A stretch of DNA of 24,000 nucleotides from the NCBI GenBank assembly GCA_011391865.1, contig JAABPV010000003.1, positions 14,726 through 38,725 of the forward strand, read 5' to 3'. The translations under genes and the position numbers were made by a program. The notes below the pieces were generated by a model. That model was not told where the DNA came from. It worked only from the letters and a program-made list of their open reading frames with translations, and ran no database searches. The stretch's first letter is position 1. Each line of letters starts with the position of its first letter. This document shows, in pieces, positions 2,014 through 19,326 of this stretch. This stretch comes from Desulfobulbaceae bacterium (lineage in GTDB: Bacteria > Desulfobacterota > Desulfobulbia > Desulfobulbales > Desulfobulbaceae).

Positions 2014-3795
2014 TCACAATAATTCTGGTGGAATGACGCGGACTCGCACGCCGTTTTCTATAACAGAAACCTCTTCTATATTTTCTACTTCTTCGTTAGA
2101 AACAATATCTTTTGATAAATTTTTCTTAAATAGGCTTATTGTATCCTGACTTTCTTTTTGTACAAACTTACAATTTATTCTTTCTCCATTATTTAGAATG
2201 ACATCATATCCTAACACAATCTTATTTTCTACAGGAAAAATAGAGTTTTGATTGACCGCGCGTAATTTATATAAATCTTCCATTTTATATAGTTCATTTA
2301 TGATTTTGATTTTATCAGCAGGAATATTCATGCGTAGATTATCTCCAAAAAGATAAAAGCATCCATTGTTAAACTTAACAATTTCATTGCATGGTATTAT
2401 CCTTCCGTCATTCAAATGAATATCATATCCAAGTATATGTGAATCCTTTTGCTTATTTTCTATAGATTTTTCTTGCGCCTCTGCATAACCTCTTGCTGTA
2501 AGTTCTTTGCTTTGAATTAGAGATGCGCTTTTATTTTCAATGTCAAACGAATTATATGGGTCATTATCAGCTTTATTGATCAATACAATTAAAAATGTAG
2601 TTAAAATAACAACAAAAATACTGGCACTTGCCCTTGCAACTCCCCATTCTTTGTGATCAACAATGGATTTAGTTGATGTATCCCAGAGGGTCGTGCCGGT
2701 TTTTGTAAGTTTTCTATATGCAAACAGGCGTGTAAAAGAAGATAGAAAAGGTATTCCAAAACATTCGCCTTGAATATAGACTAAAAATGCTCTTTTGAAT
2801 GCAACCGGATATGAAAGTTTTTCTTCTTCAATATCTAAAACGCTTATGCCGAATATCCATTTGGCTGGAGTTGTTCCTATGCCTGCTATAAAAGCAGCTT
2901 CCATAGGTATCCATAAAATAGAGAGCATTACTCCAGCTATGATTGGATTACTTATAGCATTGACAAATGATTCTACATTAGAAGGAAAGAATAGTCCGAC
3001 GAAAAACGAAATAATAAAAATAGAAAATATACCAAACATTAAAACATCAGTTGTTCTTGCAAATAAACGTCGCCAAGGGTGATGTATGCCACCAAAAAAT
3101 GTTTTGCTTTGGTCGATTTCATTTGTTTTTCTATCAACGGAGATTTTATTACTCCGAATTTCTTTGGTCTCGCTCAAGAGAACCTTTGGAGGATTTTTTG
3201 ATTCGGCACGATAATATCCTTTGTTGAATTTACTTAATTGTTCCTCTATCTGCTCGTACTTTTTAGCAAGATGCTTCAGTTCCACATCATCGATCATCTT
3301 TAGATTTTTCCCTGTTTTCCTTAGATACCTTCGCACGGAATTGATGATATTTTCTTCATGTACACCATAGAATGCATCTCCTATTCCAGATAATGGAATA
3401 CTCAGAAAAACGAGTGTTCCAAGAATAGCAGGCCCCCATTCACGAGAGAAAACGGCAATAATAGCAAAAATAGAAGAACCTATTGAAGCATATGTCAACG
3501 CAGAAGCAAATTCTGAACGTGCAAAAAATGTAGCTAATTCAAGCGGCGGCAAAAAGATTGACGCATTGACCCGAAAGAACGTCTTATCTTCTTCATCAGC
3601 GAAAAAGTCTGGATTCTTAATAAGAATAGCATTTGCTAAATTTTGGTTGCGAGAATAGATCATCTGACAGTACGCTCTGATCATCGCGGCCACGACAGGC
3701 AGATACCACCACCACAGATTTTCTGTGTCCGTCGTAAAAAACAATACGGTGAACACGATTCCAGCAAAGAGCAAACTCCCTATTAGCGTGATCAT
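2014..3795 (-). CDS. AT-rich multi-pass membrane protein with a central RDD-like domain and two C-terminal repeats
   Basis: 593-aa ORF with an ATG start. RDD-family-like signature: HPWRRLFARTTDVLMFG ... TPAKWIFGISVLD ... TLWDTSTKSIV. Several hydrophobic helices. The C-terminus has two copies of an LGYD(I/V)xLN(D/N)G..I.C module. Composition is strongly AT-rich compared with its neighbours. Confidence 0.7.
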   Translation of the reverse strand: MITLIGSLLFAGIVFTVLFFTTDTENLWWWYLPVVAAMIRAYCQMIYSRNQNLANAILIKNPDFFADEEDKTFFRVNASIFLPPLELATFFARSEFASALTYASIGSSIFAIIAVFSREWGPAILGTLVFLSIPLSGIGDAFYGVHEENIINSVRRYLRKTGKNLKMIDDVELKHLAKKYEQIEEQLSKFNKGYYRAESKNPPKVLLSETKEIRSNKISVDRKTNEIDQSKTFFGGIHHPWRRLFARTTDVLMFGIFSIFIISFFVGLFFPSNVESFVNAISNPIIAGVMLSILWIPMEAAFIAGIGTTPAKWIFGISVLDIEEEKLSYPVAFKRAFLVYIQGECFGIPFLSSFTRLFAYRKLTKTGTTLWDTSTKSIVDHKEWGVARASASIFVVILTTFLIVLINKADNDPYNSFDIENKSASLIQSKELTARGYAEAQEKSIENKQKDSHILGYDIHLNDGRIIPCNEIVKFNNGCFYLFGDNLRMNIPADKIKIINELYKMEDLYKLRAVNQNSIFPVENKIVLGYDVILNNGERINCKFVQKESQDTISLFKKNLSKDIVSNEEVENIEEVSVIENGVRVRVIPPELL

Positions 3796-3947: not shown

Positions 3948-3986
3948 GAATTTAACCCAAGTTGTAACCTGTAACAAATTGGGTTG
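3948..3986. repeat. Left inverted repeat plus a local hairpin (pairs with 4603-4619)
   Basis: aatttaacccaagttgt (3949-3965) equals the reverse complement of acaacttgggttgaatt (4603-4619) at 16/17 positions. A third inverted copy, acaaattgggtt (3974-3985), forms a 12-bp, 1-mismatch hairpin with 3954-3965. Confidence 0.6.
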
Positions 3987-4110: not shown

Positions 4111-4383
4111 CGCGTTTGCATCGCCCTGATTCCAATTGGAACCGGGGCGTTTTCGATTGGAACCGGGCCAAAGTCAATTGGAATCGCCCTGATTCCAGTT
4201 GAAATTGACACGATTCCTGTTGGAATCAGCCCGGTTCCAATTGAAATCGCCCTGATTCCAATTGAAATTGCCCTGATTCCGATTGGAATTACCCCGATTC
4301 CAATCGGAAACGTTCCAATTCCAATTGACTTTGCCCTGATTCCAATCGACATTGACACGATTCCAATTGGAATCAGGGCAAAA
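4111..4383. repeat. Tandem array 1: 12 clear units plus 1 degenerate unit of 21 bp, consensus CCAATTGGAATCGCCCTGATT
   Basis: Units stay in constant phase from 4132, for example 4237 ccaattgaaatcgccctgatt, 4258 ccaattgaaattgccctgatt and 4174 tcaattggaatcgccctgatt. Across unit junctions the sequence forms the 16-bp palindrome GATTCCAATTGGAATC, which is perfect at 4359-4374, separated by 5-bp GCCCT spacers. Confidence 0.9.
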
Positions 4384-4600
4384 CAAGCGTGCTCCGCCGC
4401 AATTGAAACGAGCATCCTTCCGGCGCAGGCGGCGAAAAAACAGAATAATTCAGCAGAGCTGCTGTGAACGCGCAGAGACAGCCTTGCCTGCGGGAAAAGC
4501 GGATGCTTCAGGCTGGGCTGAACAAAAAAACTTCTGCATAAGGTTTATGCTCCTCTTTCCGCCCGGCATACGCAAGAAACTTTTCCGTGAACAGCAGAGG

Positions 4601-4624
4601 TCACAACTTGGGTTGAATTTAAGG
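4601..4624. repeat. Right inverted repeat (partner of 3949-3965)
   Basis: tcacaacttgggttgaatttaagg. See the left-repeat entry. Confidence 0.6.
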
Positions 4625-9194: not shown

Positions 9195-10253
9195 ATGAAA
9201 ACAAAAATGGTCTTGCAGACAGCGGCGTTGCTGCTTCTGTCAGCAGGTGTTGCTCATGCCGGTGGCAACAAATTTGGCAAGCAGCAGAAAAACTGGACCT
9301 GCGACGACTGCACACCCGCATGTTTGCAGAATCCTTATGACAAGGGCTGCCCGGACATCTGCAAGTCGCCAGCATGTCAGAATTCTTGCGACTCTTGCCC
9401 TGATTCCTGCAAACAGCAGCCTGGTGCGCCGGGCTGCCCGGAGATATGCAGCGATGTTAAGTGCCAGACCTGCACTGACTGTGCTCCTGAGTGCAAGACC
9501 AGCAACGCTCCGGCAACCTGCCCGGACATCTGCAAGGACATCAAATGCTATAGCTGCGACGACTGTTCAGCTGAATGCATAGAGACCCCGGCTGGTCCGA
9601 ACTGCCCGCCCGCATCCATCTGTGGCGATCTGGAATGCAACATCTGCGACAAACTGCCCAAGAATTGCCCAGCCACCTGCAAGGAAAGCCCGGACGATCC
9701 GGCAAAATGCCCGGCAGAGTGCAAGAGTGTTCCTGAGAAATGCCTGATGCCCGCCGTTGAGCAGGAAAAGGAGCCGGAAACAACGGTTGATCTTGGGCCG
9801 TTCCGCTTCCTCGGCGATGTTGGCTACTACAAGCAGACAGATCCAGCTGACTACATTTTTGGCCGCATCGGTGTGGAGTGGAGTCCTTTCGCCGCAGGCA
9901 GCCGGTTTGAGCAGGTTTCCTTCACCGGCATGATCGGCGCAGCTGCGCAGGTCAAAGGCACGGACGGCGACGACGCGCTGCTGCTTGATGTGATGACCAA
10001 CTACAACTGGCAGGCTGGCGATGTGAACGGCTGGGTTGGTTTGGGCTTGGGCGGCTGGATCACCTCTGGCGACGTGGAAGACGATTCCGGCGACAGCGAC
10101 CTTGACATGATCGTCAATGCTGGTGCCCGCGTGTACGGCGATCCGCAGGCGTTCAACATCTCTGCCTTCTTGGAGATTCGGAGCGCGATCGACGAGTTTG
10201 ACGGCTTGGCCGAGTACGGACGCTTTGGCGGCGGCCTGCGGTTCAAGTTCTAA
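9195..10253 (+). CDS. Exported Cys-rich protein with a C-terminal beta-barrel-like domain, paralog 2
   Basis: AAGGAGAG RBS. Signal peptide MKTKMVLQTAALLLLSAGVAHA. About 30 Cys within aa 36-183 (nt 9300-9743), in roughly 28-aa modules such as CQTCTDCAPECKTSNAPATCPDICKDIK. The C-terminal roughly 150 aa align with paralog 1 at high identity by eye (FR.(I/L)GD.GY.KQTDPADYIFGR.G.EWSPFAAG ... AEYGRFG.GLRFKF). Confidence 0.8.
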   Translation: MKTKMVLQTAALLLLSAGVAHAGGNKFGKQQKNWTCDDCTPACLQNPYDKGCPDICKSPACQNSCDSCPDSCKQQPGAPGCPEICSDVKCQTCTDCAPECKTSNAPATCPDICKDIKCYSCDDCSAECIETPAGPNCPPASICGDLECNICDKLPKNCPATCKESPDDPAKCPAECKSVPEKCLMPAVEQEKEPETTVDLGPFRFLGDVGYYKQTDPADYIFGRIGVEWSPFAAGSRFEQVSFTGMIGAAAQVKGTDGDDALLLDVMTNYNWQAGDVNGWVGLGLGGWITSGDVEDDSGDSDLDMIVNAGARVYGDPQAFNISAFLEIRSAIDEFDGLAEYGRFGGGLRFKF

Positions 10254-10292
10254 ACAGCAAAGGACTTGCCTTCGGGCAGGCTCTTGAAAAAA

Positions 10293-10323
10293 GGCGCGGG
10301 ATGCTTTCCCTGCGCCTTTTTTT
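10293..10323 (+). terminator. Rho-independent terminator after paralog 2
   Basis: ggcgcggga (10293-10301) / tccctgcgcc (10307-10316), followed by T7 (10317-10323). Confidence 0.75.
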
Positions 10324-10364
10324 ATGTCTGCCGCATCAGCCCAGTTTTTTGTGTCTGTGATGCC

Positions 10365-11555
10365 ATGCTCTTTCCCGCCGCTCTGAAAAAGGCCGTCCGC
10401 GCCGCCCTCTGGTTCGCCTTCCTCACCTTCCCGCTCATGGTGATCAAGGTCAATCCCTACGAGCGCACGGTTGTCTGGCGTTGGCAGAATTTGCTCTATG
10501 TCGCGCTGGCCGCCTTTGTTGGCTCGCTGCTTGCGCAGGCTGCTGCCGCCTTCAAGTCGAGGGGAAAGCCGCAGGCAGCCGCTGCTCCCGCCAAAGACTG
10601 GCTGTTGCTCTTTAACAAGACGGCAGTCCGGCTGCCCGCGCTGGTGCTGCTCCTGCTGGGTCTCGGCCTTTTCCCGCATTTGGTCTCCTCTTATCAGGTC
10701 AGTATTATGATTACGGCCCTGCTCTACGTGATGCTGGGCTTGGGCCTGAACATCGTGGTCGGCATGGCCGGGCTGCTGGATCTCGGCTATGTAGCCTTTT
10801 ACGCAGTTGGAGCATATTCCTACGCCCTGCTCAACCTCCATTTCGGCATCGGCTTCTGGACCGCCCTGCCCATTGGCGGACTCTTGGCCGCGCTCTTCGG
10901 CATATTGCTCGGCTTTCCGGTGCTGCGGCTGCGCGGCGATTATTTAGCCATTGTCACCCTTGGTTTCGGCGAGATCATCCGCCTTGTGCTGGAAAACTGG
11001 ACAGAGTTCTCCCAAGGTCCCAGCGGTATTTCCGGCATCCCCCGGCCCGGTTTTTTTGGCATGGAGCTGTCCTTGCAGCAGTCGGTTATTTATTTGTATT
11101 ATTTGATGCTCGGCATGGTCATCTTCACCATCTTTGCGGTAGGCCGCCTGCGAAATTCGCGCATAGGCCGGGCTTGGGCCGCCCTGCGCGAGGACGAAAT
11201 CGCCTGCCGGGCAATGGGCATCAACAAAACAAAGATCAAGCTGGCCGCCTTCGCCTCCGGCGCATTTTGGGCGGGCATGGCCGGGGTGCTCTTCGCGGCC
11301 AAAACCACCTTTGTCAACCCGGCTTCTTTCACCTTCATGGAGTCGGCGATCATCCTCTGCATTGTCGTGCTGGGCGGCATGGGTTCCATCCCCGGCGTGA
11401 TCATCGCCGCCTTGACGCTGATCCTCCTGCCTGAATATCTGCGCGCCTTGGCCGACTACCGGATGCTGGCCTTCGGCGCGGCCCTTGTGCTGATGATGAT
11501 ATTCCGGCCTGGTGGGTTGTTTCCGGCAGCGAGAATGCGCAGGCAGAAGGGCTGA
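10365..11555 (+). CDS. livM: Branched-chain amino acid ABC transporter permease LivM
   Basis: MLFPAALKKAVRAALWFAFLTFPLMVIKVN... gives the N-terminal extension typical of LivM. The permease core includes GLGLNIVVGMAGLLDLGYVAFYAVGAY, LRLRGDYLAIVTLGFGEI and ALREDEIA. Start moved from the track's 10266, which lies inside the upstream terminator, to ATG 10365. Confidence 0.85.
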   Translation: MLFPAALKKAVRAALWFAFLTFPLMVIKVNPYERTVVWRWQNLLYVALAAFVGSLLAQAAAAFKSRGKPQAAAAPAKDWLLLFNKTAVRLPALVLLLLGLGLFPHLVSSYQVSIMITALLYVMLGLGLNIVVGMAGLLDLGYVAFYAVGAYSYALLNLHFGIGFWTALPIGGLLAALFGILLGFPVLRLRGDYLAIVTLGFGEIIRLVLENWTEFSQGPSGISGIPRPGFFGMELSLQQSVIYLYYLMLGMVIFTIFAVGRLRNSRIGRAWAALREDEIACRAMGINKTKIKLAAFASGAFWAGMAGVLFAAKTTFVNPASFTFMESAIILCIVVLGGMGSIPGVIIAALTLILLPEYLRALADYRMLAFGAALVLMMIFRPGGLFPAARMRRQKG

Positions 11556-11618
11556 TGATAACGCCTGTTTCGTTTCCCGCAGCATAAATTTTTTCATTTT
11601 CAGAGAGGAGATTACGCC

Positions 11619-11939
11619 ATGCCAAATCAGCTTATTGAACTCCAGGATGGTCTGCTTGTCGAGGTGGAGGTACCGCCCGATCAGGTGCGTCAGATTTCCG
11701 GCGGGTTGCCAGAGCAGGTGGACAAATCAATCGATGCTGTCTACACCTTGCTGCTCAACGCCTGCCGTCCAGTGGTTTCAGTCTGGAGTGAACTGAACAA
11801 GGATATGTCTATCTCTGGTGCCGAGGTTGAGCTGCAACTTGGCTTTTCCGCTTCCGGCTCGGTCTTTCTTGCCAAAGCAAACGGCAGCGCGAATCTGAAA
11901 ATCAAGCTGTCAATCTCGCCAAAATCGGATAAGTCCTGA
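11619..11939 (+). CDS. Trypco2-like (trypsin co-occurring domain 2 / CU044_2847-like) small protein
   Basis: 106 aa, GAGAGGAG RBS. N-terminal LIELQDGLLVEVEV and C-terminal AEVELQLGFSASGSVFLAKANGSANLKIKLSI match, from memory, the family pattern (..dG..v.VEV ... vEfGvkls.eaGaviaka..eg.lkvkLtw). The stop is 2 nt before the protease gene. Confidence 0.65.
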   Translation: MPNQLIELQDGLLVEVEVPPDQVRQISGGLPEQVDKSIDAVYTLLLNACRPVVSVWSELNKDMSISGAEVELQLGFSASGSVFLAKANGSANLKIKLSISPKSDKS

Positions 11940-11941
11940 AA

Positions 11942-13666
11942 ATGGAACTCGACAAGCGGGCAATTTTCCTCCTGACCAGTGCCGACAGCGGCAAGAAAGC
12001 CTTCGGCACCGGCTTTGCGGTGGCCTGCAAGGAGGGCAAATTATATCTCCTTACCTGCGCCCATGTGGTGGAGCAGCTTGGCGGCAGAGTTGTCGCCAGC
12101 GGAGCCGATGCCGTCCCGCATGAAGCGGCGATTGAGGCGGCTGGCTCGTCCAACACGGTTGATCTTGCTTTGTTGAGCATCCGTCATGACGGCACAACGC
12201 CGCCGCTGCTCAATCGGCCTGCGAAAGGAAAGCCGGACATGCCGTTTCAGATTCTCGGCTACGGCCCTCATTTTGGAGCCAGAGAAAACTATGTGCTCCG
12301 CGATATTCAAGGCCGTTTGGGCAAGCCGATTTCCTTTAAAGCTGTCGGCATAAAAAGCATAGAGGCATGGGACATTCATGTTGACGACGATGAATTTTCC
12401 AAGCTCCAAGGCGGCTACAGCGGCTCTCCGCTCTGCGATGCCGCAGGAAGGCTGCTCGCGGTTGTCAGTCATAATGCCGATCCTGCCGCTGGACAGCGCG
12501 GTCATGCCGTTGCCGTCGTCAATCTGCAAGCCATCTTCCCGGAGATCGAGCAACTCCTTCCTGCTTTTACCGGTCTGACTGAAGAACATCTTGATCCGGC
12601 GGCCCGCATCAATCAAGCGATGATGCAGCTTTCTGGCCGCGCCTTTGAAATTTGCTCTATTTTTCCCGCTATCGGCTTGGAGCTGGAGCGGATGCGGAAA
12701 GAGGGCATCAGTGAGGACGACAAGGAAATCTTTGCCGAGATCAACAGATTTACTGAACGGACAATTGCTGCCGAAGCCTTTATTTTTTTCTTCAGCAATC
12801 TGGACAACAGAAGAAAAGCCGTCGCCAGCCGTCCTGATTACACAAAGCTCGCCGGGCAGCTGCAAAATGGTCAGGTCATCCTCTGTCTTGGGCAAGAACT
12901 GTCGCATCTGCTTGGCGTAGAGCTGCCTTCAACCGAGGCGATCAAGCAACATCTCAGCCGGAACGGTTTTCATGGCCCTTTGTCAGAACTTTGCGAGCAA
13001 AAAGAGCTGGCCTTGAACAGCAGCCGCGCTGATCTGGTCAATGACATCCGCGCTCTGTTCAAAGCAGACCAGAAAAAATCTCCAGTCGCGCTGCACGAGC
13101 TGCTGGCCAATCTGAAGAATCCATTTTTAGTCATCTCGACCGCCTATGACGATCTGCTGGAGCAAAGTCTGCGCGGCAGGCGGAAATTTGCCGTGATTCA
13201 TCCGAACATGGAAGACAAACGATGTCTGCTGCGCTGTTCCGATCAAAAGGATGTCTTCTGCACCCCGGAAGAACTGTCCAGCTTCAGCCTGCTGGAAAAC
13301 GGCTATGCGGTCATTTATCAGCTCCGGGGCGGCATTTTCAATGACAAAGGCCATCTTCTCCTGTCAGAACGCGATTATTTCACCTTCACCCGCTTCATGC
13401 AGCAGCAGTTTCCTGACTACATCGGCAGCAAACTGAAAAATTCGCTCCATTCGCTCTGGTTCCTCGGCCATCACCCGGAAAGCTGGGAAGAACGCCTGCT
13501 GATTAAGTCGCTTCAGGAGCTGCGGCACGACCGTGCGCCGTCGCTGGCGATTCAGGAAGGTGGCTCTTCGTTTGCCCAGTCGTTCTGGCAGGATAGAAAA
13601 GTGAAGGTCTATGATTGCCCGCTCAAGGACTTTGTGCAGGAACTTGCTTTGTGCGCAGCGAATTGA
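11942..13666 (+). CDS. Trypsin-like (S1/Trypsin_2) serine protease fused to a divergent SIR2_2-like domain
   Basis: 574 aa. Protease triad contexts: LLTCAH41VV, VD74LALL, GGYS160GSP. The C-terminal half (aa about 300-560) follows SIR2_2 order: VILCLGQELS...LPS (in place of flGAGvS..lPsw), LVISTAYDDLLEQ (in place of iiTTNYDdLlE), IYQLRGG...LLLSERDYF (in place of klHGs...lvlTeeDY) and LWFLGHHPESWE (in place of llFiGySl.D). Confidence 0.8.
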   Translation: MELDKRAIFLLTSADSGKKAFGTGFAVACKEGKLYLLTCAHVVEQLGGRVVASGADAVPHEAAIEAAGSSNTVDLALLSIRHDGTTPPLLNRPAKGKPDMPFQILGYGPHFGARENYVLRDIQGRLGKPISFKAVGIKSIEAWDIHVDDDEFSKLQGGYSGSPLCDAAGRLLAVVSHNADPAAGQRGHAVAVVNLQAIFPEIEQLLPAFTGLTEEHLDPAARINQAMMQLSGRAFEICSIFPAIGLELERMRKEGISEDDKEIFAEINRFTERTIAAEAFIFFFSNLDNRRKAVASRPDYTKLAGQLQNGQVILCLGQELSHLLGVELPSTEAIKQHLSRNGFHGPLSELCEQKELALNSSRADLVNDIRALFKADQKKSPVALHELLANLKNPFLVISTAYDDLLEQSLRGRRKFAVIHPNMEDKRCLLRCSDQKDVFCTPEELSSFSLLENGYAVIYQLRGGIFNDKGHLLLSERDYFTFTRFMQQQFPDYIGSKLKNSLHSLWFLGHHPESWEERLLIKSLQELRHDRAPSLAIQEGGSSFAQSFWQDRKVKVYDCPLKDFVQELALCAAN

Positions 13667-14016
13667 GCATTTTTGGTTTTTCGGATGCCAAAATCGCACT
13701 GGAAAACGTCTTGTTTGGAACAGCAAACGTGGCATTCGCGATTCAAAACGTCTCGTTTGACGCTGGCAACGACGTGTTTGCAGCAGCGAATGCCTCATTC
13801 GCAGTGTGAAACGTGGCATTCGCAACAGCGAATGAGGCATTTTGAACAGCGAACGTCTCGTTTTGAACTGGCAACGGCGTGTTCGCAGCAGCAAACGTGG
13901 CATTCGCAGCGTGAAACGTGACGTTTGCAACAGCGAATGAGGCATTTTGAACAGCGAACGTCTCGTTTGAAACCGGCAACGCGGCCTTCGCAGCATGAAT
14001 TGAACAGGCGGAATCA
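13660..14016. repeat. Tandem array 2: 14 clear plus about 3 degenerate units of 21 bp. Each unit is a 17-bp imperfect palindrome GCRAAYG-NNN-CRTTYGC plus a 4-bp linker
   Basis: Units in constant phase, for example 13786 gcgaatgCCTcattcgc-agtg (perfect 7-bp arms), 13744 caaaacgTCTcgtttga-cgct, 13891 gcaaacgTGGcattcgc-agcg, and 13828 = 13933 gcgaatgaggcattttgaaca (identical). A higher-order 105-bp (5-unit) period is visible (13828-13932 versus 13933 onward). The array spans the gap from the stop of 11942-13666 to the ATG at 14016. Confidence 0.9.
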
Positions 14017-17000
14017 TGAACAATCTTTCGGCAGCTTGCTTGGAACCCTACATCGGCCTGAAACCGTTCACCGAGCAGGAGAAAGACCGCTTTTTTGGCC
14101 GCGACCGCGAGACAAGCATTCTGCTGGATAAAATCCGCGCCAACCGCCTGACCTTGCTGCTGGCGGCCAGCGGCGTTGGCAAAAGCTCGCTGCTGCAAGC
14201 AGGCATCATGCCGGCGTTTCGGGCGGACGGCCATGCGGAACTGATCTATCACAACAGCTGGGCTGCCGAGCCGGGCGCGGCACTCAGGGAAAGCATCCTG
14301 AATCATTACGCCAAACGGCCCGGCCTGAGCGGCTTTGGCGGCGATTTCACCCAGCTTTCCCTGAAAGACACCTTGCTGGCCTGCACCCTCTTCGGCAGCG
14401 GCCAGCAGATTCTGCTGCTTGATCAATTTGAAGAGTTTTTCAACTATCAGCGGTTCCAAAAGGGCTTCAAAGCGTTTGTCGAAGAGCTGAGTGCGGCTGT
14501 TCTTGACCGCAGCCTCCCGGCCTGCTTTGTTTTTTCGATGCGGGAGGACTTCGCCCTTGAACTCAACGCCTTCAAGCCCTTTCTGCCCGGCGTGTTTGAC
14601 AGCTATTTCCGCTTGGAGAAGCTGACCCGCGACCAAGCGCGGCTGGCGATTGAGCAGCCGCTACAGCAAATTGGCTGGAGCTTCGCGCCAAAGCAGGACA
14701 GCAAAGAAGGATTGCTGGAGCAGGTGCTGGATGATCTTGCCAAGCGCGAGCAGGAGCGGCAGTTCGGCGTGCAGGAGCTGCTTGCGCTGCAAGAGCTGCC
14801 CTTGCTGGTGGAGCCGCCGCATTTGCAGATTGTCTGCCGGGAGCTGTGGGACAATCATCGGGATGAGGCGGTCAAGCAAATCACCCATGCGGCCTATCAC
14901 AAGGCTGGTCGGGCTGAAGGCATTTTAGAAACCTACTTTCTCCGCAAGATTTGCCAATTCAGCAAAAAGGAGCAGGTGCTTGCCTCAGCCTCTTTTGATC
15001 ATCTCGTTGGCCAGCGGGCCACCAAAGTGGCGCATCCGCTGGAGCGATTGGCCGAATTGACCCGCGCTGATGCCAATGCGCTGAAGCTGATGCTGGATAA
15101 GCTCCAAGATTGCGCTGTGCTGCGCCGCCAAAAGCGCGGTGAAGAGTTCTGGTACGAGCTGTATCACGACATTTTTTCTGAATCCATTGACAAGTGGAAC
15201 CGGGAATTCAAACATCGGCAGCGAAAGAAACGGCTGGCCGTGGGAACTGCTGCGGTGCTGATTGCAGGCGGCTTGTTATTTGCGGGCAACAACTGGCGGG
15301 CGAATTATTATGGCCGGTATTTGCAGCTGAGTCCAAAGGAAAGCATTTCTGATCGGATCGAAGTGTATCAGGGAACAGAGAAGAGTTTAGATTTGTTTCA
15401 GATACGCAACTTTGGCTATGAAACTCTTTTTCTCCGACAGGAGCTTGAGGCGGACAAGCGGTTTGGAACAAGCCTAATTTATGAGAAAAGCGAAATGCAA
15501 GCCGATATAGTCAGCGACATGCCGATGGTGGAGCGCATTCCTTTCTACATGGCGACAGGATTATACGGAAAAGGCCGCGAACTTGCTGACTCCATTTTGC
15601 GGGAGAACAAAGCGGAGAACATTCAGTTCCTTCCAAAGCACTTTGCACAGGTGCGGACAAAGGCGAGCGTTACCCTATTGTCCAGTTTGTTTGAAAAACA
15701 AAAGCTGAGGGGAGCGGTTATTACAGCTTTCGTCCAGTTAAAATCGAAGTCGTCGGTGCCGGATATGATTGAGATCCTGACCGACTCTGGTTATGGCAAA
15801 ATGAACAGATCTGTGCTCGTCCGGCTGATGTTGGAATTGGCGGTACCGGAGATCGTCAAACTCTTAGAGGACAGAGATAAAGATGAAAGTGTGCGGAGTG
15901 CGGCAGTCAGTGCCCTCGGCGAGCTGAAGGCGGACTCGGCGGTGCCGGAGATCGTCAAACTTCTGACGGACAGCGAGTCAAACGTGCGGAGTGCGGCAGC
16001 CAGCACCCTCGGCGAGCTGAAGGCCAAGGCTGCGGCTCAAGATATCGTCAGACTCCTGAGAGACAGCGATATAAACGTGCGGAATGCGGCGGTCAAAGCT
16101 CTCGGCAAACTGAAGGCCAAGGCAGCGGCCCAAGATATCGTCAGGCTCCTGACGGACAGCGATGAATACGTGCGGATAAGTGCGGTCTCCGCCCTCAGTG
16201 AGCTGAAGGCGGACTCGGCGGTGCCGGAGATCGTCAAACTTCTGACGGACAGCAATGAATACGTGCGGAGTGTGGCGGTCGAAGCTCTCGGCAAACTGAA
16301 GGCCAAGGCAGCGGCCCAAGATATCGTCAGGCTCCTGACGGACAGCGATCCAAACGTGCGGAGTGCGGCAGCCAAAGCCATAGGTAAACTGAAGGTGGAC
16401 TCGGCGGTGCCCGATATCGTCAAACTTCTGACGGACAGCAATGAATACGTGCGGAGTACGGCGGTCGAAGCTCTCGGCAAACTGAAGGCCAAGGCAGCGG
16501 CCCAAGATATCGTCAGGCTCCTGACGGACCGCAATAGAAACGTGCAGGAAGAGGCAGCCAAAGCCATAGGTAAACTGAAGGTGGAGGCGGTGACAACGGA
16601 GATTGTCAAGCTCTTGGCGGACAGCGATCCAGACGTGAGGAGTACGGCGGTCGCAGCTCTTCGCAAACTGAAGGCGGAGTCGGCGGTGATAACGGAGATT
16701 ATTAATCTCTTGAGAAACAGCAATGCAGACGTGCGGAGTACGGCGTTTTACGCCCTCGGCGAGCTGAAGGCGGACTCGGCGGTGCCGGAGATCGTCAAAC
16801 TTCTGACGGACAGCGATTCAGACGTGCGGCATAAGGCGGTCTTCGCTCTCGGCAAGATGAAAGCAGAGGCGGCAGTGCCGGAGATCGTCAAACTTCTGAC
16901 GGACAGCAGTTCAGACGTGCGGAGGGCGGCGGTCAAAGCCCTCGGCGAGCTGAAGGCGGACACGGCGGTGTCGGAGATCGCCAGGCTTTTGGAGGACAGC

Positions 17001-18512
17001 AATGAAGAAGTGCGCGGTAGAGCAATCGAAGCCCTCGGCAAGCTGAAGGCGGACTCGGCGGCACCAGAGATCATCAAACTCTGGGCAGGCAGCGATTCCA
17101 ACGTGCGGATTCCGGCGGTTGAAGCTTTCGGCAAGCTGAAGGCGGACTCGGCGGTGCCAGATATCGTTAAGCTTCTGGTGGACAGCGATTACAACGATAA
17201 ATACGTGTGGAGTGGGGCAGTCGAAGCCCTCGGCGAGCTGAAGGCGGACTCAGCGGTGCCGGAGATCGTCAAGCTCCTGACGGACAGCGGTTGGGACGTG
17301 CGGAGGGCGGCGGTCAAAGCCCTCGGCGAGCTGAAGGCGGAAACGGCAGTGCCGGAGATCGTCAGGCTCCTGACGGACAGCGATTCAGACGACGTGCGGC
17401 TTCAAGCAGCTCTTGCTTTGGCAAGGATGAATGATTCCTCTCCTCAGCTTCAGGCTTGGCGGGAGCAGGCGTTCAAGGAGGCGGAGGAGAAAATTGCCGA
17501 TGATGAAAAAAAAGAGGCAGCCGAACTTCTTGCCCCTGTTTTCACCGCGCAGGCCGCAACGCTGCTTGCCCAGCTTATGGATGATGCGGATCAGAATGTG
17601 GCGCAAGAGGCGGTTAAGGCCATTGGCTTTGCCGCCGAATTCCATCCTGAATGGATTCCAAAAGACAAGCTGCTGGCCTTGCTCAAGCATCCTGAAATAG
17701 ACATGCGGGAAACGGCTGTCACCAGCCTTGGCCAGCTCATCGCCTTCCGGGGCGAGAAAAAGGCTGCAAATTTTCCAGAGCTGGATCAGCGCGTCCGCAA
17801 TGTTCTTTCCAGCCTGATCAAAGATACGCAGCAGAAAACCAGCATCCGAGCGACCGCCATTGATGCCTTTGGCGACACCGGACGGGAAGAATGCGCGCAA
17901 TTCCTGTTCGAGCTGCTGCCCGCATTCGACCGCAGCAAGGAGGAATCCCTGCACTCGCGCTGCATCTTCTGGCTTGGCCGCATGAACCACGCCCCGGCCC
18001 GCGACTACGTGGAAGACGAGCTGCGCAAGCTGGAACAGGCCAAGGCGGAATGGCGCGAGCAGCGCGACCAGAACAGCGGCAGCATCGCGGACAAAGATGA
18101 TGCGTGGTGGCAGGTGCGGGAATACCGCCTCGGCAGCGCATTGGCCCGCATCGCTTCAGCAGAACGCGGGATTGAGCTGCTCGGTCATCCGCTGCATTAT
18201 GTACGCCAAGCGGCTGTCCGCGCCTTGGCAGGCAAGGCCGACGCTGACTTGATCGGCAAAATCATCCACGCCCACCAAAACTTCGACCCGGACGACCTGC
18301 CTTCGCCCTTCCCCTATACCGCCTTCCAAGCCATTGACCTCGCATTGTGGAATTTGGAATACACCGGCACGGCGGCTGATCTGGCCAAACTAAAAACCAT
18401 CCTCAGCACCGTCCCAGAAAAAAGCAATATTCCCGGCCAAGACGGGGCAATCAAAGAACGGCTGGAGTGGACGATTGAGCGGCTGCAAAGCAAAACAGCC
18501 GAGCGCAAATAA
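14016..18512 (+). CDS. nSTAND-type (novel STAND) P-loop NTPase, single predicted TM helix, long HEAT/PBS-lyase-like repeat array
   Basis: 1498 aa. N-terminal hallmark PYIGLKPFTEQEKDRFFGRDRE. Walker A LLLAASGVGKSS (K56). Walker B ILLLDQFEEFF. PHLQIVCRELW and WYELYHDIF...W motifs are typical of this STAND clade. KHRQRKKR is followed by LAVGTAAVLIAGGLLFAG (aa 407-424). Then come 17 regular 31-aa units of the form ADSAVPEIVKLLTDSxxxVRxAAVxALGELK, plus degenerate HEAT-like units to the C-terminus. Confidence 0.85.
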   Translation: MNNLSAACLEPYIGLKPFTEQEKDRFFGRDRETSILLDKIRANRLTLLLAASGVGKSSLLQAGIMPAFRADGHAELIYHNSWAAEPGAALRESILNHYAKRPGLSGFGGDFTQLSLKDTLLACTLFGSGQQILLLDQFEEFFNYQRFQKGFKAFVEELSAAVLDRSLPACFVFSMREDFALELNAFKPFLPGVFDSYFRLEKLTRDQARLAIEQPLQQIGWSFAPKQDSKEGLLEQVLDDLAKREQERQFGVQELLALQELPLLVEPPHLQIVCRELWDNHRDEAVKQITHAAYHKAGRAEGILETYFLRKICQFSKKEQVLASASFDHLVGQRATKVAHPLERLAELTRADANALKLMLDKLQDCAVLRRQKRGEEFWYELYHDIFSESIDKWNREFKHRQRKKRLAVGTAAVLIAGGLLFAGNNWRANYYGRYLQLSPKESISDRIEVYQGTEKSLDLFQIRNFGYETLFLRQELEADKRFGTSLIYEKSEMQADIVSDMPMVERIPFYMATGLYGKGRELADSILRENKAENIQFLPKHFAQVRTKASVTLLSSLFEKQKLRGAVITAFVQLKSKSSVPDMIEILTDSGYGKMNRSVLVRLMLELAVPEIVKLLEDRDKDESVRSAAVSALGELKADSAVPEIVKLLTDSESNVRSAAASTLGELKAKAAAQDIVRLLRDSDINVRNAAVKALGKLKAKAAAQDIVRLLTDSDEYVRISAVSALSELKADSAVPEIVKLLTDSNEYVRSVAVEALGKLKAKAAAQDIVRLLTDSDPNVRSAAAKAIGKLKVDSAVPDIVKLLTDSNEYVRSTAVEALGKLKAKAAAQDIVRLLTDRNRNVQEEAAKAIGKLKVEAVTTEIVKLLADSDPDVRSTAVAALRKLKAESAVITEIINLLRNSNADVRSTAFYALGELKADSAVPEIVKLLTDSDSDVRHKAVFALGKMKAEAAVPEIVKLLTDSSSDVRRAAVKALGELKADTAVSEIARLLEDSNEEVRGRAIEALGKLKADSAAPEIIKLWAGSDSNVRIPAVEAFGKLKADSAVPDIVKLLVDSDYNDKYVWSGAVEALGELKADSAVPEIVKLLTDSGWDVRRAAVKALGELKAETAVPEIVRLLTDSDSDDVRLQAALALARMNDSSPQLQAWREQAFKEAEEKIADDEKKEAAELLAPVFTAQAATLLAQLMDDADQNVAQEAVKAIGFAAEFHPEWIPKDKLLALLKHPEIDMRETAVTSLGQLIAFRGEKKAANFPELDQRVRNVLSSLIKDTQQKTSIRATAIDAFGDTGREECAQFLFELLPAFDRSKEESLHSRCIFWLGRMNHAPARDYVEDELRKLEQAKAEWREQRDQNSGSIADKDDAWWQVREYRLGSALARIASAERGIELLGHPLHYVRQAAVRALAGKADADLIGKIIHAHQNFDPDDLPSPFPYTAFQAIDLALWNLEYTGTAADLAKLKTILSTVPEKSNIPGQDGAIKERLEWTIERLQSKTAERK
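15840..17432 (+). repeat. Intragenic 93-bp (31-aa) tandem repeats, 17 units, with a 186-bp two-unit higher-order period
   Basis: Strings such as gcggactcggcggtgccggagatcgtcaaacttctgacggacagc recur almost verbatim. 16209-16394 and 16395-16580 are near-identical at the nucleotide level. Unit types alternate: ADSAVPEIVKLL and AKAAAQDIVRLL. Confidence 0.9.
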
Positions 18513-18537
18513 CAAACCGCTGCTTCGCCATGACAAT

Positions 18538-19326
18538 ATGACAGCACCAATCCTCGATGTCATCGGCCTGACGATGAAATTTGGCGGCATCCGCGCCTTG
18601 GACGGGCTTGATCTGCGCGTCCGGCAGGGCGAGATTGCCGCGCTGATCGGCCCCAACGGCGCGGGCAAGACCACCTTTTTCAACTGCGTCACCGGCATCT
18701 GCAAGCCGACTTCCGGCCAAATTCATCTTCATCCGCCCGGCGGCAACGCGGTGCGCCTCAACGGCCTTGCCCCGCACAAGGTGACGCAGGCCGGAATGGC
18801 CCGCACCTTCCAGAACATCCGCCTTTTCCCGGAAATGACCGTGCTGGAAAATGTGATGATCGGGCGGCACTGCCGGACAAAAGCCGGACTGCTCGGCGCG
18901 ATTTTCCGCGACAAACGGACGCGGCAGGAGGAGCAGGAAACGGCAGCCCGCTCTTTTGCTCTACTGGAGAAGACAGGATTGGCTGCGTCTGCCGATGAGC
19001 TGGCGAAAAATCTGCCTTACGGGGCGCAGCGGAAGCTGGAAATCGCCCGCGCCTTGGCCACAGAGCCGCTGCTGCTGCTCTTGGACGAGCCTGCGGCGGG
19101 CATGAATCCGCAGGAAACTGCCGAATTAGACAGCCTGATCTGTGCCATCCGCGATGAAGGCATCTCCATTCTTCTGATCGAGCACGACATGAAATTGGTG
19201 ATGAGCCTCGCTGATCACATCTTTGTCATGGACTATGGCCGGAAAATCGCTGAAGGAAAGCCGGAGGAGGTGCGCCGCTGCCCGGAGGTGATCCGGGCCT
19301 ATCTTGGAGATGAGGCCGAGAGCTGA
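18538..19326 (+). CDS. livG: Branched-chain amino acid ABC transporter ATP-binding protein LivG
   Basis: MTAPILDVIGLTMKFGGIRALDGLDLRVRQGEIAALIGPNGAGKTTFFN (Walker A), the LivG-type signature LPYGAQRKLEIARAL, Walker B LLLLDEPAAGMN and LIEHDM. Start taken at ATG 18538 rather than the track's 18475, which overlaps the upstream gene. Confidence 0.9.
   Translation: MTAPILDVIGLTMKFGGIRALDGLDLRVRQGEIAALIGPNGAGKTTFFNCVTGICKPTSGQIHLHPPGGNAVRLNGLAPHKVTQAGMARTFQNIRLFPEMTVLENVMIGRHCRTKAGLLGAIFRDKRTRQEEQETAARSFALLEKTGLAASADELAKNLPYGAQRKLEIARALATEPLLLLLDEPAAGMNPQETAELDSLICAIRDEGISILLIEHDMKLVMSLADHIFVMDYGRKIAEGKPEEVRRCPEVIRAYLGDEAES

Follow-up and report, generated by a model that had tools for sequence, protein, structure and literature searches.

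We analysed a tandem array of 21-bp units that lies between two genes of a defence-like module in the genome of a Desulfobulbaceae bacterium. The array is located on contig JAABPV010000003.1 (assembly GCA_011391865.1), from which a stretch of 24,000 nucleotides of the forward strand (positions 14,726 to 38,725) was examined; this whole stretch is called the window here, and all coordinates refer to it unless another contig is named. The module consists of three plus-strand genes that were annotated with Pfam. These encode Trypco1 (11619–11939), an effector of 574 aa that combines Trypsin_2 and SIR2_2 domains (the Trypsin-SIR2 protease, 11942–13666, with the 3' end GCA GCG AAT TGA) and an nSTAND1 nucleoside triphosphatase (NTPase) of 1498 aa with HEAT repeats (14016–18512). 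Together, the three genes interrupt an operon for a branched-chain amino-acid ATP-binding cassette (ABC) transporter (liv, 9195–19326). The permease gene (10266–11555) and the ABC ATPase gene (18475–19326) bracket the module, and the 3' end of the NTPase gene shares 38 nt with the open reading frame (ORF) of the ABC ATPase. An exact-protein look-up of the protease returned no record, and a metagenome search for relatives of this protein found none.

The 21-bp array and its homologous loci

The array spans 13658–14014 and has no assigned strand. It comprises 17 phase-constant periods, of which 14 are clear units (13700–13993) and three are degenerate (at 13658, 13679 and 13994). It wholly fills the 349 nt between the protease stop codon and the ATG of the NTPase gene at 14016 (13667–14015). 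The last 9 nt of the Trypsin-SIR2 gene also belong to the array, and the protease stop codon (13664–13666) sits within the first degenerate unit.

Autocorrelation over 13658–14014 reaches 0.52 at a lag of 21 and 0.69 at a lag of 105, compared to a maximum of 0.36 at any lag up to 60 in 500 shuffles. Superimposed on the units is a higher-order repeat of 105 bp, or five units (13747–13956, no strand), whose two full copies (13747–13851 and 13852–13956) are 86% identical and are followed by a partial third copy to 13995. Tandem Repeats Finder (TRF) reports this repeat at 13747–13995 with 2.4 copies and 85% matches. Between 13658 and 13975, 15 matches to the consensus GCRAAYGNNNCRTTYGC were found, each exactly 21 nt from the next (no mismatch in three matches, one mismatch in one, two in five and three in six); in the rest of the 24-kb window, we found only scattered background matches with three mismatches. 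A preliminary description of this stretch, made from the sequence alone, had proposed a phase-constant 21-bp array that fills the gap between the protease and NTPase genes, with 14 clear and about three degenerate units and a 105-bp higher-order repeat, and autocorrelation, TRF and the consensus matches confirm this anatomy. We also agree with its statement that this is not a CRISPR array, a candidate that we rejected as the units abut without spacers and the period is 21 nt.

In register, the array unit reads CAGCRAAYG-NNN-CRTTYGCAG, which gives a linker-free description of 9+3+9 nt with invariant columns at AA (6–7), G (9) and TT (15–16). The units had been described as dyad-symmetric. This holds for the consensus and for GCGAATGCCTCATTCGC at 13786, which is a perfect palindrome, but it does not extend to most of the units: the arms form between three and seven Watson-Crick pairs of seven, mostly four or five, and all seven in one unit only. 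Dyad symmetry is thus a property mainly of the consensus and not of most units. At its borders, the array is flanked by an imperfect direct repeat, CGCAGC(AT)GAATTGA (13653–13670 and 13988–14006), which looks like a duplicated insertion target. We rejected a target-site duplication, as the alignment score of this repeat is no better than that of shuffles and the repeat is weaker in the orthologous locus described below.

This orthologous locus is found on a contig of Candidatus Electronema sp. TJ (L114), which has 93% nucleotide identity to positions 11964–15316 of the window. The closest nSTAND1 proteins, with 68–70% identity, come from Candidatus Electrothrix and Desulfobulbus sp. US4, i.e. 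from cable bacteria and relatives. Taken together, the DNA identity to TJ and these proteins identify the source of the window as a close Electronema relative. We compared the module to homologous modules in Ca. Electrothrix aestuarii (L001), in Desulfobulbus sp. US4 (L002) and on a metagenome contig (L003). In all three, the effector gene shares 4 nt (ATGA) with the NTPase gene without any spacer, and no period-21 signal is present. The module on the metagenome contig is also syntenic: it occupies the place in the liv operon that it has in the window, with the ABC ATPase gene beside the NTPase gene, downstream of the module (identity to the window is 77% in the NTPase gene and 84% in the ABC ATPase gene). 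Because all three modules have the ATGA overlap and lack the array, this comparison of loci shows that the array is derived and was inserted where the stop and start codons of the effector-NTPase pair overlapped. The insertion occurred after the lineage of the metagenome contig branched off and before the lineages of the window and TJ separated.

Since then, the array has kept its copy number and phase and has diverged more slowly than third codon positions nearby. The TJ ortholog has 17 periods as in the window, and the two arrays differ by no indels and at 16 of 349 positions (4.6%; 13667–14015). In the same pair of genomes, third codon positions have diverged by 9–10% in the adjacent 300–600 nt and by 15–17% over the compared parts of both flanking genes. 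Compared to a rate of 9.5%, the 16 differences in 349 nt correspond to a binomial p=0.0005. The copy number of the 21-bp units is unchanged; the HEAT repeats of the nSTAND1 protein have changed in copy number, with the TJ protein being ~110 aa shorter. In the window, these HEAT repeats are encoded by a 93-bp (31-aa) tandem repeat at 15891–17391 that has 16 copies and a higher-order period of 279 bp.

Two further observations concern the history of the locus. First, 13770 and 13875, which are homologous positions of both 105-bp copies, show an identical C/T difference when the window is compared to TJ; this suggests that gene conversion may have acted between the higher-order copies. Second, on the TJ contig (L114 2463–2483), the NTPase start is preceded, 18 nt upstream, by an ATG in the reading frame of the NTPase. 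At the corresponding place of the window (13998–14018), the equivalent ATG is followed by a stop codon (ATG AAT TGA), which looks like a remnant of the ancestral ATGA stop/start overlap.

A family of arrays in Electronema and pattern-matching arrays in other phyla

Arrays of this kind are not confined to the module. We scanned one genome per species for three AAYG-N3-YRTT cores at 21-bp spacing and found at least 120 loci, compared to an estimated chance expectation of ~2 for the whole collection. Among the matches listed, Electronema (TJ, PJ or KV) accounts for at least seven loci. Within the Electronema arrays, the exact 21-bp phase is held over 10–16 units, and the units follow the loose consensus C-N4-AAYG-NNN-CRTT-N4-R with ~60% identity to each other. 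Different Electronema loci share the core AAYG-N3-YRTT and the loose arm consensus only. All of the Electronema arrays are intergenic, and most are located between co-directional genes. For instance, such arrays lie between an AAA_16/nSTAND1-like ORF and a 787-aa ORF (L014), between the genes of a CxxCxxCC protein and an Mrr_cat nuclease (L019) and between those of a DegT aminotransferase and PanD (L069). Two others are found downstream of FabF in Ca. Electronema sp. PJ (L122) and upstream of a Peptidase_M48 gene (L008). A comparison of 73 ORFs located beside arrays from different phyla showed no enrichment of any Pfam family. We also considered a MITE-like element with common ends and rejected it, as the flanks of nine Electronema arrays share no sequence. 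The sole match in this comparison of flanks is an inverted repeat around a second array in the window.

This second, independent 21-bp array (4112–4384, minus strand) has the unit TTGGAATC-GCCCT-GATTCCAA and a higher-order repeat of 63 bp. It is located between two minus-strand genes and has the G-rich centre AGGGC on the strand of those genes. The array is strongly self-complementary (RNA fold z=-13) and thus has the stem-loop feature of repetitive extragenic palindromic (REP) elements. The inverted repeat around it comprises 22 nt (91% complementary; 3949–3970 and 4598–4619) and encloses the array at a distance. Beside the array lies an RDD-family gene (2014–3795), whose product, judged by eye, seems to contain much Lys, Asn and Ile; this may mean that the G+C content of the gene is lower than that of the rest of the window, and the gene may have been acquired horizontally. 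A third kind of array, with a period of 21/42 bp and a unit of about GTTYTGCCGAGTWGSAAAGGA, is present at L122:1226–1358. It lies between convergent genes, which from their translations we take to be ribD-like and nucleotidyltransferase-like.

Arrays of AAYG-N3-YRTT with a 21-bp period are frequent across phyla, including Treponema, Planctomycetes, Bacteroidetes, Verrucomicrobia and Acidobacteria, and are often located at contig ends. With a stricter pattern applied to metagenomes, the matches listed include contigs from the assembly that contains L003. Some metagenome-assembled genomes have several arrays with a common core and loop and with differing arms, e.g. Prevotella HGM04866 with AAACGATACGTTT. 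Other arrays are phase-shifted (L071 and L119), and the matches across phyla are probably heterogeneous. When viral contigs were searched for the same core at different periods, 52 loci were found for 18 bp, 18 for 20 bp, 115 for 21 bp, 22 for 22 bp and 65 for 24 bp. Multiples of three are thus favoured in viral contigs, which fits repeats that genes tolerate within their sequence. Loci with period 21 nevertheless outnumber those with period 18 or 24 about twofold; as the matches are heterogeneous, this excess is suggestive only. In our searches of the literature on 21-bp palindromic arrays and on repeats of cable bacteria, we found no description of such arrays. The genome papers on cable bacteria that we consulted for repeats cover insertion sequence elements and genomic repeats in general and not such arrays.

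The Electronema arrays have a polarity relative to the genes beside them. Read on the strand of the neighbouring genes, most arrays have AGG, or at least a G-rich sequence, as their central trinucleotide, and the GC skew is +0.09 to +0.15 in seven of the eight Electronema segments (4112–4384 included) and -0.14 in one short segment (L008a). We rejected mutational GC skew as the cause of this polarity, as the skew at third codon positions of the genes nearby varies between -0.20 and +0.23 and has no consistent sign. Among arrays with divergent units and co-directional flanking ORFs, the sense-strand centres are G-rich in 12/17 cases and C-rich in 5/17. Over all pattern-matching arrays across phyla, the polarity is not significant (13 vs 7).

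Possible roles of the array

According to the preliminary description, a transcribed array would form a string of hairpins with 7-bp stems and 3-nt loops. Our results do not support such a string. One of the 14 units forms this hairpin on the sense strand with substantial energy (-8.4 kcal/mol), and two more form partial, weak ones. Furthermore, the complementarity of the outer arms is not higher within units than between units, neither in five Electronema arrays (1.6–2.5 of 5) nor across 35 divergent arrays (2.40 within units vs 2.45 between). Both values are above the 1.25 of 5 that is estimated for equal base frequencies. A two-species RNAalifold structure has 9/9 changes in paired columns that keep pairing, but this structure was fitted to both sequences. 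Rfam at the gathering score matches only a tRNA (992–1065) in the window, and a relaxed search of 13500–14200 has its best match at 22.5 bits, compared to a gathering score of 98. We thus rejected a hairpin string or structured RNA, for which unit folds, z-scores (given below), complementarity and RNAalifold gave no independent support.

The comparisons above show a non-coding array that belongs to a family dispersed in Electronema, entered a gene junction that had overlapped before, is stable between two species and has the orientation of its neighbours. For the reading as a whole, in which the array is one copy of a lineage-specific, non-coding family of 21-bp intergenic arrays in Candidatus Electronema that resemble REP elements and bacterial interspersed mosaic elements (BIME) or a minisatellite, and in which it has a generic effect in cis, we see about an even chance (probability roughly 0.5). 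A simple consensus scan of 13600–14100, which covered sigma-70-type promoters and intrinsic terminators and no other promoter types, detected neither. Since no promoter or terminator motif was found and the G-rich centres are on the sense strand, the array is probably co-transcribed with the operon. A long, weakly structured and untranslated spacer with more G than C would then replace the translational coupling of the ATGA overlap, so that translation of the NTPase would start independently at its weak ribosome-binding site (CAGGCGGAATCATG in the window and CAGACGGAATCATG in TJ). In line with an idea of the preliminary description, the array must alter the expression of the NTPase relative to the effector. 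The effect at this locus is likely generic and exerted in cis. In Escherichia coli, REP elements near stop codons modulate mRNA decay and upstream translation; by analogy, the array may also influence mRNA decay. At this locus, the array would thus mark a lineage-specific break in the translational coupling of effector and sensor and would not be part of the machinery of the module.

Several observations weigh against a family with a generic effect on the transcript. The exact 21-bp phase over 13–17 diverged units is not needed by an RNA spacer and suits a reading at the DNA level better. Unlike in classical REP families, different loci have only a degenerate 8-nt core in common. RNA folding of the whole array is weak (compared to shuffles, z=-2.6 for the plus strand and z=-2.2 for the minus strand), and the arms show no covariation or compensatory variation at the level of units, so that a hairpin-based mechanism as in REP elements is not supported. 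Positions that differ between the window and TJ are equally common in core and non-core columns (6/133 vs 10/216). In addition, divergence along the locus is patchy, which makes the estimate of constraint soft; the constraint on the array between the two species appears real but modest and is apparently not specific to the motif. Lastly, the polarity test includes few independent arrays and crude ORF calls.

The main rival explanation is a cooperative binding array at the DNA level, such as an iteron, a plasmid centromere or a nucleoid or silencing site. Here, a dimeric protein bound to the symmetric core AAYG-N3-CRTT at sites two helical turns apart would polymerise along one face of the helix, and the resulting filament would block or insulate transcription between the effector and NTPase genes. 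Such binding would explain that the phase is exact over 15 consecutive matches though the units are only ~60% identical, and that conservation is symmetric and confined to the consensus. It also agrees with half-sites that vary independently and without compensation (as seen in the 35 arrays), with the weak RNA folding and with period 21 being the commonest of the five periods in viral contigs. However, no gene nearby is of the rep or par type or encodes a candidate for the binding protein. Very different sequences share the period (4112–4384 and L122:1226–1358), which would call for several proteins or for a readout based on shape. Moreover, non-core positions are as conserved between species as the core, and a polarity relative to genes is unexpected for a symmetric site. 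We thus regard a binding array as unlikely, while taking it seriously.

The array may alternatively be a neutral or selfish minisatellite, in which a palindromic 21-bp seed grew by slippage and higher-order duplication and persists as it is harmless. The polarity would then reflect survivorship, as only the orientation with more G than C avoids C-rich Rho loading sites within operons. Decay from a palindromic ancestor would give what we observe in the arms, i.e. equal complementarity within and between units with both above the estimate of 1.25. The hierarchical higher-order structure, the unrelated neighbours without an enriched family, the equal divergence of core and non-core columns and the phase shifts in L071 and L119 are likewise in line with a minisatellite. 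This explanation suits the stability between species less well: compared to TJ, there is no indel or change in copy number, and divergence is about half of that at adjacent third codon positions. In addition, the phase is kept despite ~40% divergence between units in several arrays of 13–16 units. A minisatellite without function is therefore a possibility to which we give little weight.

More tentatively, cable bacteria, and possibly many other phyla, could have a class of chromosomal elements acting in cis that has not been described so far and consists of phase-locked 21-bp arrays with a symmetric core. These would be recognised at intervals of two helical turns by a factor dedicated to them, either on the DNA or on the nascent sense RNA with its AGG centres, and selection would keep them as they insulate or tune the genes that they separate, including toxic STAND conflict modules such as the one here. 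We doubt that this is the case. The genomes of cable bacteria appear to contain a family of intergenic arrays in which an unusual set of features comes together: an exact 21-bp phase despite ~40% divergence of units, a symmetric consensus without maintenance of hairpins, an orientation that follows the neighbouring genes and stability between species. If the arrays are functional, they would give new access to how operons are regulated or chromosomes organised in a multicellular bacterium for which growth in pure culture is not possible. If they are not, they are still useful as strain markers and as a known cause of assembly breaks.

The preliminary description had also raised the idea of a nucleic-acid component of the system, i.e. 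a dedicated component or regulator of the Trypco1 / Trypsin-SIR2 / nSTAND1-HEAT module such as a protein-bound RNA or DNA scaffold or a ToxI-like repeat RNA. The location of the array exactly between effector and sensor and its retention in the TJ ortholog would suit such a role. Furthermore, a STAND-like ATPase ORF and its neighbour are set apart by the array in L014, and the array in L019 lies beside an Mrr-like nuclease gene. The comparison of loci does not support this idea: of three findings that the preliminary description had named as refuting, two were made, i.e. homologous modules without a comparable array and the same repeat at unrelated intergenic sites. The three closest homologous modules recovered outside Electronema (L001, L002 and the syntenic L003) have no array, and their genes overlap by the 4 nt described above. 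Arrays of the same family adjoin genes of PanD, DegT, FabF, Peptidase_M48, an Mrr-like protein and another STAND-like protein, and the window itself contains a second 21-bp array. There is also no ToxN-like gene, no Rfam match above the threshold and no repeat-RNA defence system matched by PADLOC. A ToxI-like antitoxin RNA was rejected, as the downstream gene encodes an nSTAND1 NTPase, no terminator-like site is present and PADLOC gave no such match. A system-specific role is thus unlikely, and we consider it very improbable that the array is a dedicated nucleic-acid component of this defence-like module.

Lastly, the array could encode a heptad-repeat peptide xNxxFxx (e.g. ANATFAA) on one strand, given that its period equals seven codons, that a frame in which AAY encodes Asn and TTY encodes Phe is open on the minus strand of this array and also open in L014 and L019, and that one array, L122, has a codon-like conservation pattern. 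However, at most 6/16 of the array changes between the window and TJ are synonymous in any of the six frames, compared to 86/128 and 61/92 in the flanking genes, and of the 22 changes that separate the two 105-bp copies, no frame makes more than five synonymous. The open Asn/Phe frame is sense in some Electronema arrays and antisense in others, with stops in several. A codon-like 3-periodicity is absent, as in only 9/36 divergent arrays do the putative third positions vary more than the other classes, and Pfam searches of Electronema array translations have best E-values of 0.03–0.27, far below the curated cut-offs. The substitution pattern, the inconsistent frame, the lack of codon periodicity and the absence of a Pfam family together rule out a coding heptad repeat and show, on these comparative grounds, that the array encodes no protein, which leaves a peptide with next to no credibility.

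Comparison with known systems

Tandem short repeats that present a motif at regular intervals are known from ToxI of type III toxin-antitoxin systems and from the sponge RNAs CsrB/RsmZ. The array is similar to these in its tandem short repeats and in being potentially transcribed, but genes for ToxN or AbiQ and a GGA loop motif are absent here, and the period and sequence are unrelated.

Iteron- and centromere-like arrays comprise plasmid iterons, centromeres of the ParR-parC type and lambda-type origin iterons. Their likeness to the array lies in repeats of ~20–22 bp in helical phase (21 bp are two helical turns of B-DNA), in dyad-symmetric units and in a geometry that suits cooperative binding on one face. 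Direct repeats in helical phase are present here, with 15 matches at an exact spacing of 21 nt. In contrast to these systems, the arrays described here are chromosomal with several loci per genome. No cognate gene of the Rep or ParR/ParB type adjoins the array, which is flanked by the Trypsin-SIR2 and nSTAND1 genes in the liv operon. Further differences are that only an 8-nt core is shared here, that the period is common to unrelated sequences and that the strand on which the G-rich centres lie follows the genes. The array thus resembles iteron or centromere arrays in geometry only.

The SMAG palindromes of Stenotrophomonas are reported to occur as single units or head-to-tail clusters at specific intergenic loci (PMC2613905). 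They are similar to the array in being small palindromic units that are arranged head-to-tail in intergenic regions. The length of SMAG-type clusters is reported to vary between strains and to be used for typing, whereas the array here has the same copy number in two genomes that are ~7% apart.

The REP/BIME elements of enterobacteria and pseudomonads, including clusters such as REP325, are, along with palindromes clustered head-to-tail as in SMAG, the nearest analogues of the array. They differ from it in several respects. The units here are direct and have an exact 21-bp period, whereas REP alternate in orientation and have variable linkers. Sequences differ strongly here between loci and between units (~60% identity), and stable stem-loops of the units are not maintained in this array. 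A GTAG or CGTC head, as in REP, is absent from the unit consensus, and no RAYT (Y1) transposase was identified, with no genome-wide search made for one. On the other hand, the likeness to REP/BIME covers short units with a palindromic consensus, clustering in arrays, apparent chromosomal dispersal and restriction to a lineage. It also includes a strictly extragenic location, often between co-transcribed genes near stop codons, and the array described here has such a location, as it fills 13667–14015 between two co-directional genes.

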